Origin: a virus
Length of the DNA: 64,000 nt
Virus record (IMG/VR): IMGVR_UViG_3300042889_001061
Coordinates: 1-64,000 of that record
Direction: 5' to 3' (one strand)
Shown: piece by piece, positions 57,219 through 64,000 of the stretch
Layout: every line of letters starts with the position of its first letter
Position numbering within the stretch: the stretch's first letter is position 1
The notes under the pieces: model-generated
Seen by the model: the letters and a program-made list of their open reading frames with translations, nothing else
Database searches by the model: none
Told to the model about the DNA's origin: nothing
Translations under genes and position numbers: made by a program

Positions 57219-57521
57219 ATGAAAAAATTATTCATCACTCTGGCATTAGCCTGTGTAACATTGCCTGCATTGGCACAACATCATGGATACCGTCATCACA
57301 ATCACCACTATCGAGGTCCGGGATACGGCAGCTGGGTAGCACCGCTAATTATTGGCGGTGCTATTAGTTATACATTAACTAGACCTGAGCCTATAATTAT
57401 ACAGCAACCAGTATATATCGAACAGCAACCAATACCATTAAATCAAAATTGTGGTCCGTGGAAAGAAGTCTGGACTTCTGATGGCAAAATTTATAGAGAA
57501 AGAACTTGTACTAGTCAATAA
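57219..57521 (+). CDS. Secreted His/Pro-rich small protein
   Basis: Signal peptide ending ALA; HHGYRHHNHH; WVAPLIIGG. Confidence 0.65.
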   Translation: MKKLFITLALACVTLPALAQHHGYRHHNHHYRGPGYGSWVAPLIIGGAISYTLTRPEPIIIQQPVYIEQQPIPLNQNCGPWKEVWTSDGKIYRERTCTSQ

Positions 57522-57603
57522 CTAATACTGACGCCGACCTAAACTATTCGTATTAAACATTTATACGGTACTACTTTTAAGTACTAGTGTAAATGTTTTT
57601 AGT

Positions 57604-57690
57604 GGATAGTTGGTCGAGAGGCTTATGACACCAATCTCCGAAGTTGGCAAAGACGCGAGTCTTTCAGGGGTTCAAATCCCCTACTATCCT
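57604..57690 (+). tRNA. Class II (long variable arm) tRNA with Ser-like body and CCG (Arg) anticodon; CCA not encoded
   Basis: GGATAGT/ACTATCC acceptor; GTC/GAC D-stem; CCAAT-CTCCGAA-GTTGG anticodon arm; AAAGAC-GCGA-GTCTTT variable arm; AGGGG-TTCAAAT-CCCCT T arm. Confidence 0.9.
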
Positions 57691-57703
57691 CTAAGAACAT
57701 TTT

Positions 57704-58453: not shown

Positions 58454-59338
58454 TCAGTTCGGGGAATCGTTGATTATCTCACTACTGCAATAGTATTTGC
58501 CACCGGTGGTCAGCAAATCGCTGATTAACTGATCCAAAGGTACACTAATGAAATCTTTTCTGTAAGTATGTCTTGGACCTTGTATTACATAGTCTATATT
58601 TTCTGCACCAGACATTTTTGGAAAATATATTAAATCTTTACCCCAATATTTTCCATAATACATGCCTTTAATAAAGGAGTCCCACCAACTGATATTACGT
58701 ACTCCTTGTTTTGTGTATAGTCCATGAGCATTAATAAATGCTGTCATTATATCGTCTTTAACTGTACTTACAACAACTTCGCTGGTTTTATCAAATAATA
58801 TATATTCAGCGGTTCTGCCTAAAGTGTCTCCTGCACGTTTTCGTGACATTTCAAAAGTATGATAACCTTCATAAAAATGTGCAATACCTTTAACAAAGGT
58901 TATAAAAGGGCCGTCTCCGCCCTGCAAAAAGTTTACATCAGGTAATTGGCCGAGAAACTTACTATGAATTATTTGAAATGGCGGAATATTTAAATTTTTA
59001 CTGATGTCAAGTATTTCTTCTTTACAGGCCATGGGATCAATGTCAATGATATGTGATTTAAACTGCCAAGCACGTTCCAATTTTTTTAAATTATTAAACT
59101 CAATATCATTATAACCTGGCATATAAAGAAATGCAGTTTCAATTTTAATACCTTGATCCATAAAACTTCTCAACGCGGCTTGACTATCAACACCAGAACT
59201 AATACCTAATATAAGTTTGTCCCCCAGGGCAATTATATCTCTAGCTCGACGATTATACTCTTCTCGAAGATTGCCCACTTCCCACTGACATTGGTCGTAT
59301 TCGATGTAAAATCCTTGGCTATCTGTGTTGAATTGCAT
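58454..59338 (-). CDS. PP-loop (adenine nucleotide alpha-hydrolase-like) protein
   Basis: LILGISSGVDS motif. Confidence 0.65.
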   Translation of the reverse strand: MQFNTDSQGFYIEYDQCQWEVGNLREEYNRRARDIIALGDKLILGISSGVDSQAALRSFMDQGIKIETAFLYMPGYNDIEFNNLKKLERAWQFKSHIIDIDPMACKEEILDISKNLNIPPFQIIHSKFLGQLPDVNFLQGGDGPFITFVKGIAHFYEGYHTFEMSRKRAGDTLGRTAEYILFDKTSEVVVSTVKDDIMTAFINAHGLYTKQGVRNISWWDSFIKGMYYGKYWGKDLIYFPKMSGAENIDYVIQGPRHTYRKDFISVPLDQLISDLLTTGGKYYCSSEIINDSPN

Positions 59339-59374: not shown

Positions 59375-60529
59375 ATGACAAACAAAAAATTAGGGTATTA
59401 TACATGTGCCGGTCTGGAATTTGAATCTAAAATTCAAGCATGTCTACATGCAGTCGCCACAGGTAGGGAAGTTCAATGGCATTTTAACGATGAGATTTTT
59501 TCAAAACACAATTGGAGTGTAGAGCCGGAATTAAGTCTTGATGCATTGTATAATTTAAGAAGTAAGCAGATTAGAGAAAAATACGACTATGTTGTATTAA
59601 GTTACAGCGGTGGCGCAGACAGTCATAATATCTTAATGAGCTTTATCCGCCAGGGTCTACACATAGACGAAATTGTTGTAAACAACATGGAAAAAGCCAA
59701 CCGGCAATTCACGGATCTCAATGTAAACAATACAGATCCAACTAATACTCCCGCCGAGTTTAGATTACAGGCTGTACCTAGATTAAAGGAAATCGCAGTA
59801 CTAATTCCTAGAACAAAAATCACAGTCTGTGATCTCAGTGAACACTTGTTTGACTACATGAATTCGGCCAAAGATGCCAGTTGGGTATTAGGCCGCAAGG
59901 AAGGCCTTAACGCTGCCAATGCCACTAGATATAATTATTTGGCCATGACTGAAATTAGAAAACAGTTTGATAAAAACAAGTCCATGGTCATTGTTGTGGG
60001 CGTGGACAAACCACGTTGTTTTATACGCAATGGTGATTTTTATATTAGATTTGCAGATCGTGCTGCCAACATTGTTCCAATCCCCGATCACTTGAACGAG
60101 TACACAAACAGCACGGTAGAACTATACTATTGGAGTCCGGACAGTATAGATATTTTAACTAAACAAGCACATGTTGTTCGTCGCTGGTTAAAATTTAAAC
60201 CTGAAATGCAAAAATTGTTTGACAGTGATGTAATGGCAGATCCCAAAATATTTAGAATTTACCACGAGCAACTTCTTAAAAATATTGTATATACGACATG
60301 GAATGAAAATTGGTTTCAAACAGATAAAGCAGTCAAAGACTGGACCAGTGAATTTGATCAATGGTTTGAAGATGGATACAGTGATACAAGAGCATATGGT
60401 ATTTGGCTGGAAGGCGTTAACTTCGTCAAGGACAAGCTACACACATTTGCCAATCATCGCAATGGCGATCTCGATGGCTTAAAGCTGTTTGGAAAAAACT
60501 ATAAAATAGGATCTTTTGCAGATCGTTGA
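59375..60529 (+). CDS. PP-loop (adenine nucleotide alpha-hydrolase-like) protein
   Basis: VVLSYSGGADS, GVDKP, YYWSPD. Confidence 0.7.
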   Translation: MTNKKLGYYTCAGLEFESKIQACLHAVATGREVQWHFNDEIFSKHNWSVEPELSLDALYNLRSKQIREKYDYVVLSYSGGADSHNILMSFIRQGLHIDEIVVNNMEKANRQFTDLNVNNTDPTNTPAEFRLQAVPRLKEIAVLIPRTKITVCDLSEHLFDYMNSAKDASWVLGRKEGLNAANATRYNYLAMTEIRKQFDKNKSMVIVVGVDKPRCFIRNGDFYIRFADRAANIVPIPDHLNEYTNSTVELYYWSPDSIDILTKQAHVVRRWLKFKPEMQKLFDSDVMADPKIFRIYHEQLLKNIVYTTWNENWFQTDKAVKDWTSEFDQWFEDGYSDTRAYGIWLEGVNFVKDKLHTFANHRNGDLDGLKLFGKNYKIGSFADR

Positions 60530-61538: not shown

Positions 61539-61567
61539 TAGACAAAAAAATTGAAATTAGTTATACT
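61539..61567 (+). promoter_or_regulatory. sigma70-type promoter of LuxR gene
   Basis: TAGACA-17bp-TATACT; TTGTAATCTAA direct repeat just upstream (61501, 61523). Confidence 0.6.
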
Positions 61568-61579
61568 TACTATAACTAT

Positions 61580-61643
61580 AAGATACACTGAAGTACTAGT
61601 ACTACAGAGTATTAGTATTAAGAAGTATAGACTACATTAAGTA
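61580..61643 (+). repeat. Four degenerate 16-bp units ending in AGTA (operator-like array)
   Basis: AGTA ends at 61595, 61611, 61627, 61643. Confidence 0.6.
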
Positions 61644-61678
61644 TTAACATAGCAGACCTAACAACGAAAAAACTTTAT

Positions 61679-62803
61679 ATGAAAACAGCAGACAATGTAA
61701 AAAAGACAATTTTATTTTATCAGCCAGATAGATATACTCGGCATGCAGATAGCATCGTGGCAGATGCATATCTCGAAGAACACATTCTTTGTAATTTTTT
61801 AATTGCACTTACCTGGGATGATTTTGTCAGTAAATTAAACTTAAACCCTGACTTAGTGGGTTTTCACTGTGATTTATTTGACAACGAAGAATTAAGTATT
61901 CATCAATTAATAAAAGCAATAGAAATAACTCTCAAGCTAAAAAATAACCAAGCAGATATTTTTGTAAAAGTTAATAAAAAAACTTGTCGAGAAACTATTG
62001 ATATGTTGAGAAACACAAACATCATAGGTCTGCAATTTGATCGGGGAGACTTTGGTTTAGAATATGCCACAGAATCCTTTCGAAAATTACTAACAGATAG
62101 ACATCATTGGCCTGAAGAAGTTATTGCTACATCGTTAGAACATCAAGAAAATAAACGACCTTTGCACGTTTATTTTAGAGATGATATGGAGGTATATTAT
62201 GACCCAGTAAGATTTGTAGAAGTAACAAAAGATATTAATGCTAGATTTCTAATGTGTAAAAGTTTGAATGAGTTAAGTATAGCATTATCCGAGCGTCCTA
62301 AGAATCTTGTATTTCATATAGACATGGTTAGACGGCATGGCGGAACAATATCAGAGTTTATGATGATGTTAGAAACTATGACGAAATACACTAATACAAA
62401 AATTAAACCTAACATCGGTGTTGGTATAGAAGCAGATACACATTTATCGACAATTAAAGAATTACAAAAACACAGAATACTGGCAATAGTACCAAGTGCA
62501 AAAACATTTGGCACAACTAGTACTCGCAGTGCCATAGAAGTAATGCTGAATAATGAATCGCATTGGCCCAAAGACATTATCAGTACTCTTCCTGGCAATG
62601 AAAACAAAGTAAAAAATAAAAATAATAATGCCCTAACAATTAGACAACAAGAAGTATTTGATCTAATTGCTAAACGAGGTCTAAGCAACAAGCAAATCGC
62701 CAGAGTGCTAAATATATCTGAGAGCACAGTTAAGATTCATGTCAGCGCAGTCATGAAGAACCTTTGTGTTAGAAATAGAACACAATTGGCCTTAACGAAA
62801 TAA
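61679..62803 (+). CDS. LuxR/NarL-type regulator with two tandem degenerate receiver-like domains
   Basis: C-terminal LTIRQQEVFDLIAKRGLSNKQIARVLNISESTVKIHVSAVMKNL.V.NRTQLA; duplicated FH.D...FG...HWP module. Confidence 0.88.
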   Translation: MKTADNVKKTILFYQPDRYTRHADSIVADAYLEEHILCNFLIALTWDDFVSKLNLNPDLVGFHCDLFDNEELSIHQLIKAIEITLKLKNNQADIFVKVNKKTCRETIDMLRNTNIIGLQFDRGDFGLEYATESFRKLLTDRHHWPEEVIATSLEHQENKRPLHVYFRDDMEVYYDPVRFVEVTKDINARFLMCKSLNELSIALSERPKNLVFHIDMVRRHGGTISEFMMMLETMTKYTNTKIKPNIGVGIEADTHLSTIKELQKHRILAIVPSAKTFGTTSTRSAIEVMLNNESHWPKDIISTLPGNENKVKNKNNNALTIRQQEVFDLIAKRGLSNKQIARVLNISESTVKIHVSAVMKNLCVRNRTQLALTK

Positions 62804-62857
62804 TTAACAGCGTATATATCCGTATCCAAAACATCTTCTAATACTGAAGCCAATCTA

Positions 62858-62884
62858 ATACTAAGTCATAGCACAACTTAGTAT
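62858..62884. promoter_or_regulatory. Palindromic operator candidate
   Basis: ATACTAAGT-N9-ACTTAGTAT; overlapping TCTAATACT direct repeat (62837, 62854). Confidence 0.55.
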
Positions 62885-62991
62885 ATTTCCTTTTAAGTAA
62901 TTTAGTAGCAAGCTAGAAATAGATTTTTAGTTTGCACAAACACTAGGGCGTAATAACAGTCCTAGTATTATTTACTTTAAGGAAAAATAAT

Positions 62992-63546
62992 ATGGCTGAC
63001 ATGTTAACAACAGATCCCTTCTTCGCACTTACAAATCAAGTAGCTGGCGTAAGAGAGAAAGTTTCCGATAGCATTTTCGAAAACTACAAACTACAAGTTG
63101 CTCAAACCAACGACATCAACAACCGTGCTATGCAAGTTGCATTACACGATGCTACTGAACTATCTACTATCAAGCAAGAAATTGCTAATGGCACGCTTCA
63201 GACTATGTTGGCTGCTAGTCGTACAGACGCACAGATCGGTGCCACAAGTGCTGCTCAACAACGTTTGATCATGGAACAAGCAGAAGCTACACGTCGTTTA
63301 ATCGTCGACTTGAACACACAAAACTTGAACACAGCGTTGATCAACACAAACACAGCATTGACTGGTTTGGGTGTATCATACGGTGGTTTAGGTCTTGCAT
63401 ATGGTGGCGCAGTGAGTGCTTACCAAAGTGCTAACTCTACATCAGCAATCAATGCATTGAACAGCGCAATCGCTAGTCAAGGTATGGTTACTGTAGGTGC
63501 TGGCGCAGTAGGCGGTACACAAACTGCTACACCAACAAGCGTTTAA
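62992..63546 (+). CDS. Ala/Thr/Gln-rich helical protein with Gly-rich tail, unknown function
   Basis: TAAGGA RBS, strongly biased codons, no Cys or Trp. Confidence 0.75.
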   Translation: MADMLTTDPFFALTNQVAGVREKVSDSIFENYKLQVAQTNDINNRAMQVALHDATELSTIKQEIANGTLQTMLAASRTDAQIGATSAAQQRLIMEQAEATRRLIVDLNTQNLNTALINTNTALTGLGVSYGGLGLAYGGAVSAYQSANSTSAINALNSAIASQGMVTVGAGAVGGTQTATPTSV

Positions 63547-63565
63547 TCGCTAAAGGAGGCCTACT

Positions 63566-63751
63566 ATGTATCCATACTTAGGCGGATATGGTAGAGGCTT
63601 GGGGGGATTCCCTCGAGGCTATCTAGGAGCTGGCATAGGATATCCCTATCAAGGCTTCTGGGGCTACCCAGGTTGTGGTTGGGGCTACCCAGGTTATGGC
63701 ATTGGCTGCTACGGCGGTTATGGCTATGGTTATGGCGGCGGCTTACTATAA
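63566..63751 (+). CDS. Gly/Tyr-rich low-complexity micro-protein
   Basis: AGGAGG RBS; GYP, WGYPG, GYG repeats. Confidence 0.75.
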   Translation: MYPYLGGYGRGLGGFPRGYLGAGIGYPYQGFWGYPGCGWGYPGYGIGCYGGYGYGYGGGLL

Positions 63752-63767
63752 TCTAAAATAGTAAAGT

Positions 63768-63801
63768 AAGTAGGTTGGCTCATAAGGCTGACCTACTTTT
63801 T
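63768..63801 (+). terminator. Terminator-like hairpin
   Basis: AAGTAGGTTGGC...GCTGACCTACTT + T run. Confidence 0.65.
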
Positions 63802-63817
63802 AATAAAGGAGATTGTT

Positions 63818-64000
63818 ATGTACGGTTATTTGTACCCATTTTATAGAAGTCCATATATTGGAGGTTACGGAGGTTACGGCTATGGCTATCCATACAACTA
63901 TGGTGGCTATTACAACAATAATGTTAGTAATGTTATAGGTAGCGCAGTTGCTAACCAATCAATGAATACTATTGGCGCCGGAGCCATAGGTGGCATTCAA
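63818..64000 (+). CDS. Second Gly/Tyr-rich protein, truncated by window end (not in ORF track)
   Basis: AAGGAG RBS; MYGYLYPFYRSPYIGGYGGYGYGYPYNYGGYYNNNVSNVIGSAVANQSMNTIGAGAIGGIQ. Confidence 0.75.
   Translation, partial: MYGYLYPFYRSPYIGGYGGYGYGYPYNYGGYYNNNVSNVIGSAVANQSMNTIGAGAIGGIQ

Follow-up and report, generated by a model that had tools for sequence, protein, structure and literature searches.

A separately regulated operon of large freshwater phages that may build a fibrous complex on the virion

The 64,000-nucleotide stretch of viral DNA analyzed here (the window), which comprises the first 64 kb of the 111,144-bp contig IMGVR_UViG_3300042889_001061 in IMG/VR, ends in a gene for a LuxR-type regulator and three open reading frames (ORFs) for a long helical protein (o184) and two small glycine/tyrosine-rich proteins (gy61 and gy69), and raises the question of what these genes build and under which control. 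The evidence assembled below points to a lineage-specific, separately regulated operon whose products would build a self-assembling fibrous complex, most likely hairs or a coat on the virion, a reading to which we give an even chance. The ORFs lie where an earlier sequence-only reading of the window had placed them, and the third, which had appeared to run off the end, is complete at 69 aa on the full contig. The claim that the system is encoded by a phage is borne out by genes for the large terminase (TerL), two sheath-type proteins, UvsX and a gp32-type single-stranded DNA-binding protein; helicases, a primase and a ribonucleotide reductase are also present. The contig is a fragment of a T4-core jumbo myophage, about one third of a genome according to CheckV (completeness ~32%), and its TerL shares 52% identity with the terminase of Pseudomonas phage PA5oct and 49% with its counterpart in Agrobacterium phage Atu_ph07.

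The three ORFs belong to a block of about 8 kb that extends from the regulator to a protease gene, with about 6 kb of it beyond the end of the window. An IMG/VR scan using o184 as query yielded 41 loci, against which every protein of the block was compared by tblastn and blastp. Synteny from regulator to protease was found in most of these loci, and the order of the block is kept nearly everywhere that sequence exists: the regulator is followed by o184 (sometimes as two tandem copies), gy61, gy69, o246, o79, o205, col166 and o188, and then, in related loci, by o119/o134 paralogues, o92, o230 and a papain-like protease. The gene-order test proposed with the sequence-only reading therefore came out positively: in most of the 41 loci, the glycine/tyrosine-rich (GY) proteins accompany one another as well as o184 and the regulator. 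The flanks, which include a TctC-type gene and a possible oxygenase, are not conserved with the block, and the two neighbours that were queried (o205c and the TctC gene) matched only their own locus among the related loci. Overall, the block has the appearance of a core part of its lineage, present in single copy, and not of a variable accessory gene. For o184, gy61 and gy69, nonsynonymous substitution rates (dN) are well below synonymous rates (dS) in every pair with an estimable dS, and the corresponding proportions of differences (pN and pS) behave likewise in all pairs: o184 shows dN values of 0.06-0.23 versus dS values of 0.5-2 (dN/dS ~0.1-0.2), while gy61 and gy69 show pN values of 0.19-0.34 versus pS values of 0.6-0.9. 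Since they are under purifying selection and recur with conserved core motifs in most loci covering them, the three ORFs are real genes. Their Shine-Dalgarno sequences, described earlier as strong, are readily legible (AAGGA, AAGGAGG and AAGGAG). No match to Pfam, PHROGs or NCBIfam was obtained for o184, gy61, o246, o205 or o230.

The candidate for the major subunit is o184. Its AlphaFold2 model consists of a single helix spanning residues 9-163 (155 residues), with a predicted local distance difference test (pLDDT) score of 74.7 that exceeds 90 for residues ~30-110, and carries the signature of an oligomeric coiled-coil rod with a predicted length of ~23 nm. A Gly/Tyr patch is located near the end of the helix (~125-145), and the protein terminates in a module of ~30 aa that is rich in Ser, Asn, Gln, Thr and Gly and contains the pattern ..N-T/V-G..Q-T-x-T-P-T-S-I/V. 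It is the most conserved member of the block, being 60-96% identical across loci where its neighbours are 30-70% identical; in locus L004, for example, o184 reaches 94% identity, the regulator 35% and the other block proteins 33-72%. A metagenomic set of 5.8 billion proteins contains 757 relatives, of which the best 120 are 78-96% identical to o184, and among 1.84 billion representatives the family accounts for no more than 19 clusters at the 50% identity level. Among 50,697 records of cultured phages, no match was found for o184 or o134 (tblastn) or for the 6.5-kb block (blastn). Given the few clusters and the absence of a cultured match, the o184 family is abundant yet confined to one phage lineage, and neither o184 nor the two GY families have relatives outside it. 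The ESM Atlas returned the viral clusters of o184 itself and nothing else, and a profile of the family (A1) produced only chance-level matches to PDB sequences. An R-body (RebB-family) identity was considered and ruled out, as no Pfam match was obtained at E <=0.1. Ten loci (L026, L028, L030, L032, L035, L036, L037 and L042-L044) carry two tandem o184 paralogues that are 57-75% identical to the protein studied here.

In 37 of the 41 loci, o184 is followed by a Gly/Tyr-rich ORF of 41-76 aa with at least 40% Gly+Tyr. The protein of this contig, gy61, consists of 62% Gly+Tyr (49-69% across loci), lacks acidic residues and presents in most loci the core R-G-Y-L-G/A-A-G-I-G-Y-P-Y. This core is missing from the most distant loci L029, L043 and L044, and the GY peptides of L042-L044 are much shorter and richer in Tyr and Pro. 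The next protein, gy69, likewise has no acidic residues; its N-terminal part is rich in Tyr, Pro and Gly, opening with M-x-x-G-Y-L-Y-P-x-Y-R-S, and its C-terminus is the ~30-residue module also found in o184. The variant of this module matches within each genome, so that GAGAxGG occurs in both o184 and gy69, or else NTGTxxG in both. This co-variation suggests that the two proteins assemble together or bind the same partner, or that gene conversion acts on them. No signal peptide is apparent in gy61, and the N-termini of o184, gy61 and gy69 show no hydrophobic signal sequence.

Among the eleven genes that follow are those for collagen-like, XD1-like and TNF-like proteins. The protein col166 contains a run of Gly-Pro-Pro triplets (PF01391 at 22 bits, below its cut-off) and shares its C-terminal domain with o119 and o134. 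A profile of this domain (A5) matches residues 99-169 of CBA120 TSP4-N, which lie in the XD1 domain common to T4 gp9 and gp10 (PMC8825819). Matches to the 'baseplate protein' family PHROG 20556 (E 5e-5 to 1e-4) and to a 'tail fiber proximal subunit' family were also obtained, and against the cultured phage records col166 gave a single short match, in Atu_ph07. The model of o188 is a TNF-like jelly roll (pLDDT 78.6) whose fold matches include BxpB (8d02, E 4.9e-7), ExsFA (7r5i, 6.6e-7) and structures of BclA (~1e-6); the human TNF-family ligand 4-1BBL matches equally well, so that a fold class is identified and nothing narrower. Relatives of o188 in small freshwater phages sit inside structural modules, and an o188-like domain is found in Limnohabitans phage DC33. 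Additionally, o79 begins with a coiled coil, ends in a transmembrane segment and presents weak XhlA/holin-like matches. Taken by sequence and model, the block proteins look structural and oligomeric rather than enzymatic, in line with the view, first taken of o184 and the GY proteins, that no enzyme motif is present. Downstream of the fibre genes, the most distant relatives encode a nucleotide-sugar epimerase and a methyltransferase (L044, 15557-19183), and the fibres of these phages may be glycosylated.

Two known assemblies resemble this set of parts. T4 gp9/gp10-type XD adaptors, as in CBA120 TSP4-N and G7C gp66, share the XD1-aligned C-terminal domains and the grouping of several small paralogous trimers; in contrast to these adaptors, the proteins described here comprise only 119-166 aa, are fused to collagen repeats without a catalytic or receptor-binding body, and are encoded in a separately regulated operon away from baseplate genes. 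The exosporium nap of the Bacillus cereus group also combines collagen-like Gly-X-Y proteins (BclA) with a TNF/C1q-like trimer (BxpB/ExsFA), and in both cases a short conserved N-terminal peptide is common to several proteins; one study describes part of the BclA N-terminal domain as binding BxpB (PMC10470788). Here, however, col166-type proteins end in an XD1-like domain, whereas the C-terminal domain of BclA is itself TNF/C1q-like. No ExsY/CotY-type basal-layer protein was recognized, although no search directed at ExsY/CotY was run. Furthermore, the phage setting involves no sporulation, o184 and gy61 have no exosporium counterpart, and the sequence similarity is marginal (E 0.01).

The short N-terminal peptide of the phage block is a 17-residue leader, M-Y-K-K-I-T-H-x-I-V-E-E-H-F-D-H-P, which occurs on two to four ORFs per locus in 19 loci. 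Its carriers are the helical o230/o246 family (~230 aa), in whose alignment (A6) the leader alone is nearly invariant, and the Cys-rich o92 family (~92 aa). In the relative G004 the leader is confined to the block; the o246 protein of the present contig lacks it. A profile of the o230/o246 family gave chance-level matches only among PDB sequences, and a metal enzyme reading of these proteins was ruled out since they have no conserved His/Glu set. At the end of the block, pept248 matches Pfam Peptidase_C1 with its Gln, Cys, His and Asn catalytic motifs intact on reading and is, judged by these motifs, a papain-family protease. The arrangement recalls the internal proteins of T4, which carry a common 10-residue N-terminal targeting sequence that is removed by gp21 at L/I-x-E sites (PMC9026906), and it raises the alternative that the block encodes head-internal proteins that are packaged or ejected, with the leader as a T4-type capsid-targeting sequence cut by a gp21-type protease and with o184 and the GY peptides as abundant components of the core or an internal body. 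An identical short peptide with I-x-E (here I-V-E at positions 9-11) on otherwise divergent proteins is common to both systems; a gp21-type prohead protease (Peptidase_S77) is encoded in the relatives G002 and G004, while none is found on this ~32%-complete contig, and the lack of acidic residues in gy61 and gy69 would also be in keeping with an internal location. Against this, the leader is longer than that of T4 (17 versus 10 aa), is restricted to the two to four helical or Cys-rich proteins and is missing from o184, both GY proteins and the proteins with collagen-like repeats. Trimers of the collagen-like, TNF-like and XD1-like kinds typically belong to external fibres, the block is distant from the head genes and has its own papain-like protease, and the extreme conservation of o184 contrasts with the T4 literature, in which scaffold and internal proteins are called poorly conserved. 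A location inside the head is thus rather improbable.

The protease also bears on the earlier proposal that the ORFs are a set of peptide precursors. In a more specific version, the GY ORFs would give rise to modified or antimicrobial peptides, comparable to ribosomally synthesized and post-translationally modified peptides (RiPPs), with a papain/C39-like leader peptidase and a radical S-adenosylmethionine (radical SAM) modifier. In favour of this version are the small size of the ORFs, a weak Peptidase_C39_2 match of pept248 (E 7e-4) and a radical SAM gene ~2 kb past the end of the block. Like the rest of the flanks, however, this gene does not accompany the block in related loci, and there is no transporter. 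The GY peptides are leaderless and have a fixed core motif, the leader instead being placed on proteins of ~230 and ~92 aa; gy69 has a structural module in common with the 184-aa coiled-coil protein, and the operon is of fibre type. A precursor function is, accordingly, very improbable.

Control of the block can be approached from the regulator itself (Table 1), in which duplicated receiver-like domains (residues ~1-154 and 155-300) precede a C-terminal LuxR/GerE helix-turn-helix (HTH; 318-371). The HTH matches PF00196 with an E value of 8e-16 and 57.8 bits versus a cut-off of 23.5, and it is the only part recognized by Pfam, where neither Response_reg nor VpsT-like_REC matched. The two N-terminal halves represent a true internal duplication (BLASTP E 2e-10), and relatives of the protein hold either one copy of the domain (~230 aa) or two (~380 aa). 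A profile of the single-domain form (A2) gives NarL (1.3e-17) and VraR (2.4e-15) as top PDB matches, with alignments (VraR 66-200, NarL 102-209) that reach back into β4-α5 of the receiver; the best NCBIfam matches are ErdR, NarL and CsgD. In the ESM Atlas, the nearest named clusters are receivers at 0.83-0.88, with VpsT-like REC at 0.88, values that fall below the 0.9 guide and serve as a lead only. In the alignment of 19 N-terminal domains, no acidic residue is invariant or nearly so that could act as the phospho-acceptor Asp, and the site after the third strand varies between H, N, R and D. The term 'double receiver', under which the gene was first described, is therefore plausible as a description of architecture, with a fold that is predicted and degenerate: the HTH and the duplication stand, while a Response_reg match and a conserved acceptor Asp are missing. 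Signal control, as proposed at the same time, is not supported, since the receiver-like domains have no such residue and no kinase was found. The protein is probably an atypical NarL/CsgD-type regulator that acts independently of phosphorylation. CsgD/VpsT-type regulators show the same domain order, a degenerate receiver and a position adjoining an operon of fibre subunits, and differ in that the receiver-like domain is duplicated here. A curli (CsgA/CsgB) identity of the operon was ruled out, as the subunits have no signal peptides and no curlin or CsgG match was found in the block by Pfam. In most loci, a homologue of the regulator immediately precedes o184; in the most distant ones (L042-L044), no regulator match was found at this position.

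Table 1. Positions of genes and regulatory elements from the regulator promoter region to the end of the block (window coordinates unless marked as contig)
Feature	Position	Strand	Details
Sigma-70-like promoter candidate, TAGACA-17-TATACT	61539-61567	+	10/12 match
CTAATACT-type box cluster	61575-61654	both	between candidate promoter and regulator start codon
Regulator	61679-62803	+	374 aa, ORF confirmed
Exact tandem CTAATACT-N9-CTAATACT	62838-62862	+	upstream of o184
o184 leader	62886-62991	+	motif TTTCCTTTTAAGTAAT; hairpins ~62908-62935 and 62942-62966; Shine-Dalgarno region TTTAAGGAAAAA
o184	62992-63546	+	184 aa, ORF confirmed
gy61	63566-63751	+	61 aa, ORF confirmed
Intrinsic terminator/attenuator hairpin	63768-63802	+	13-bp stem, U-tract, between gy61 and gy69
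gy69	63818-64027 (contig; window stops at 64000)	+	69 aa, complete on contig
o246, o79, o205, col166, o188, o119, o134, o92, o205b, o230, pept248	up to 69875 (contig)	+	11 co-directional genes

The boxes that could serve as operators are arranged around the regulator and its presumed target. The cluster in front of the regulator, a putative autoregulatory operator, comprises boxes at 61596(+) and at 61599, 61615, 61621 and 61647(-), with a tandem match at 61575-61599, and in L004, L013, L014 and L019, too, the regulator is preceded by similar box pairs. The intergenic region between regulator and o184, for which palindromes had been described, does contain inverted repeats; it is 188 bp long and also holds an exact 9-nt direct repeat, TCTAATACT, with a spacing of 17 nt. 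The tandem located there is the sole exact one in the 111-kb contig and represents, by its sequence, a putative binding site of the regulator at the o184 promoter; tandems with a spacing of 17-18 nt recur between regulator and o184 in L004, L013 and L014. Across the 111 kb, box pairs or clusters precede the regulator and o184, with one degenerate copy beside a tRNA gene and none elsewhere. This placement fits autoregulation together with activation of the o184 promoter, the binding being inferred, and agrees with the idea of a self-contained module with regulator-specific boxes before both genes. The sigma-70 promoter that had been assigned to the regulator is a candidate only: since sites of this type are no commoner than in shuffled sequence (31 found, 31.8 expected), it is not established.

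A near-copy of the o184 promoter region was observed at window positions 57505-57691, upstream of tRNA-Arg(CCG) (57604-57691, ARAGORN), with the boxes CTTGTACT and CTAATACT at a distance of 17 nt and ...CTTTTAAGTACTAGTG after them, the arrangement of boxes and motif lying 20-100 nt upstream of the tRNA gene. Because of this resemblance, the regulator may also drive the tRNA. Three of the 11 CGG codons fall in the regulator gene, small numbers among the ~12,000 codons counted. At o184, the corresponding motif, conserved across loci as TTTCCTTTAA(C/G)TAAT, is located downstream of the boxes and is followed by two hairpins and the likewise conserved ribosome-binding region. This 5' motif is able to pair with the Shine-Dalgarno region, and the same three helices appear in the minimum free energy folds of most loci. 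With the cleaner of two alignments, RNAalifold predicted 22 pairs, nine of which show compensatory changes, and among the helices an uncertain closing one that would sequester the Shine-Dalgarno sequence; a badly gapped alignment gave no structure. As the arrangement of boxes and motif also precedes the tRNA gene, the motif may instead be a promoter element outside the transcript. No Rfam family matches the o184 leader. Downstream, a GC-rich hairpin equivalent to the terminator follows gy61 in all 20 loci examined, usually with a T-run, and its stem letters change while pairing is kept. Owing to this conserved terminator, o184 and gy61 should be made in excess over the rest of the operon.

A regulator of this kind gives room to a different reading, namely that the products form a material in or released from the infected cell, which the regulator would switch on according to stage or condition; such a material could be a matrix, a body resembling an inclusion or occlusion, or a Gly/Tyr-driven condensate scaffolded by the coiled coil. 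Its own, autoregulated regulator and the lack of late promoters would suit such a material. The T4-type late promoter TATAAATA has only six copies, all on the + strand (window 1627, 11567, 21324 and 56154 and contig 100516 among them), and it is found 29-35 nt upstream of the sheath gene (11601) and of the ORFs at 1662 and 56183. Two matrix regulators, CsgD and VpsT, count among the closest named relatives of the regulator, the GY peptides are of low complexity, the membrane-anchored o79 is conserved in the block, the neighbourhood is of auxiliary character, and with its o188 fold and collagen-like proteins the block resembles the exosporium nap. On the other hand, the block contains neither secretion signals nor export genes, parts of it show homology to domains of tail-fibre and baseplate type and to structural-module proteins of small phages, and the core, single-copy character described above is not that of an accessory function; to our knowledge, there is no phage precedent for a non-virion material of this kind. 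We consider it unlikely.

The neighbourhood and the wider lineage give additional context. Contigs with o184 relatives reach ~330 kb, one of them being labelled as an uncultured Caudovirales phage, and the block belongs to a family of large freshwater phages. Nothing relevant was found in the literature on freshwater jumbo phages with LuxR regulators or on glycine-tyrosine-rich phage proteins. Among 185,579 genomes of bacterial species, fragments of o184 occur only on two short contigs (L049 and L050) of one metagenome-assembled genome (MAG) of the Chitinophagales. Strong Shine-Dalgarno sites are atypical for Bacteroidota; because the phage genes carry such sites, these contigs are probably mis-binned phage DNA and were set aside as host evidence. 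Directly upstream of the regulator, a gene for a TctC/Bug-type periplasmic binding protein (PF03401; 60532-61437, -) with an apparent signal peptide may hint at a betaproteobacterial host. Two divergently placed ORFs without a family match lie further upstream in the window (58454-59338, -, and 59375-60529, +), the second with an S-G-G-A-D-S motif that we take to be typical of PP-loop ATP pyrophosphatases. On the other side of the block, contig positions 74782-78316 (L001 14782-18316) hold a cluster of host-like genes for ClpX, IF3, ribosomal protein S21, Hsp20, ClpS and MazG.

An external decoration of the virion is preferred over these alternatives because XD1-like, TNF-like and collagen-like domains are stock parts of phage fibres and because the block is a fixed, single-copy feature of the lineage. 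According to this proposal, the regulator would bind the CTAATACT tandems in two places, at its own promoter to regulate itself and a short way before the o184 promoter to activate it, which would make the operon independent of the T4-type late promoters of the phage. With o184 and gy61 overproduced by means of the terminator after gy61, o184 would assemble into coiled-coil rods of ~23 nm, gy61 would pack onto the Gly/Tyr patch of o184 in the way that high-Gly/Tyr matrix proteins pack on keratin coiled coils, and gy69 would join through the C-terminal module that it shares, and that co-varies, with o184. The trimeric collagen-like and XD1-like proteins, together with the TNF-like (BxpB/BclA-like) protein, would provide fibre shafts, heads and attachment points, and the helical and Cys-rich proteins would dock through their 17-aa leader, which might afterwards be removed by pept248 or by a gp21-type head protease.

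Several observations weigh against a virion decoration. A dedicated regulator is unusual for virion genes, and no TATAAATA late promoter lies within the block even though the sheath gene uses that type; in relatives, the block is separated from the head protease by 35-75 kb. The flanking genes are auxiliary ones (TctC-type binding protein, APRT, radical SAM, ClpX, IF3 and S21), and the membrane segment of o79 is ill-suited to a purely virion structure. The fibre-type assignments are weak at the sequence level, with E values of 0.0014-0.0033 for the A5 profile (7rfv, 7rfo and 7rej) and of 0.01 (7r1m, ExsFA), 0.059 (ExsF) and 0.22 (BxpB) for the o188 profile against PDB sequences, and TNF-like and collagen-like trimers occur in non-virion structures too. 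Overall, the sequences and models establish the gene content, its conservation, the link of the regulator with the boxes, the terminator, the folds and the shared modules, from which we infer binding, assembly, stoichiometry and location in the virion.

The proposed packing of gy61 on o184 has an analogue in keratin intermediate filaments and their high-glycine/tyrosine keratin-associated matrix proteins. In both systems, a coiled-coil rod with Gly/Tyr-rich end segments would be accompanied by partners of 6-8 kDa with 40-69% Gly+Tyr and, in some cases, Cys; the likeness is one of composition and architecture, with no homology. Combined with the exosporium parallel, this analogy leaves room for a composite biomaterial that would be new for viruses, in which o184 rods would be embedded in or cross-linked by gy61 and gy69 and covered with an exosporium-like nap of collagen-like and TNF-like trimers. 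Governed by the phage's own atypical response regulator, it would surround the virions as a protective coat or occlusion-like matrix, or make up a compartment in the cytoplasm. We hold this fuller picture to be possible but doubtful.

Whichever structure is built, its fibre-type parts are of known kinds, while o184, the two GY proteins, the shared C-terminal module, the leader and the control by an autoregulated, atypical receiver-LuxR protein are new. The o184 protein is abundant in freshwater metagenomes and the best-conserved member of its neighbourhood, yet it has no annotation, and the same is true of both GY families. If the products decorate the virion, they would represent a new type of phage surface that combines a coiled coil with Gly/Tyr peptides and with trimers of collagen/TNF-like type, as well as a rare case of virion-associated genes moved from the late-promoter regulon to an autoregulated NarL/CsgD-type regulator. 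If they are not bound to the virion, the result would be more unexpected, namely a phage-made material inside the cell or set free from it. The system is compact, with one regulator that has a clear candidate operator and two or three small major subunits, and its portable 17-aa leader and 30-aa C-terminal module might act as assembly tags.

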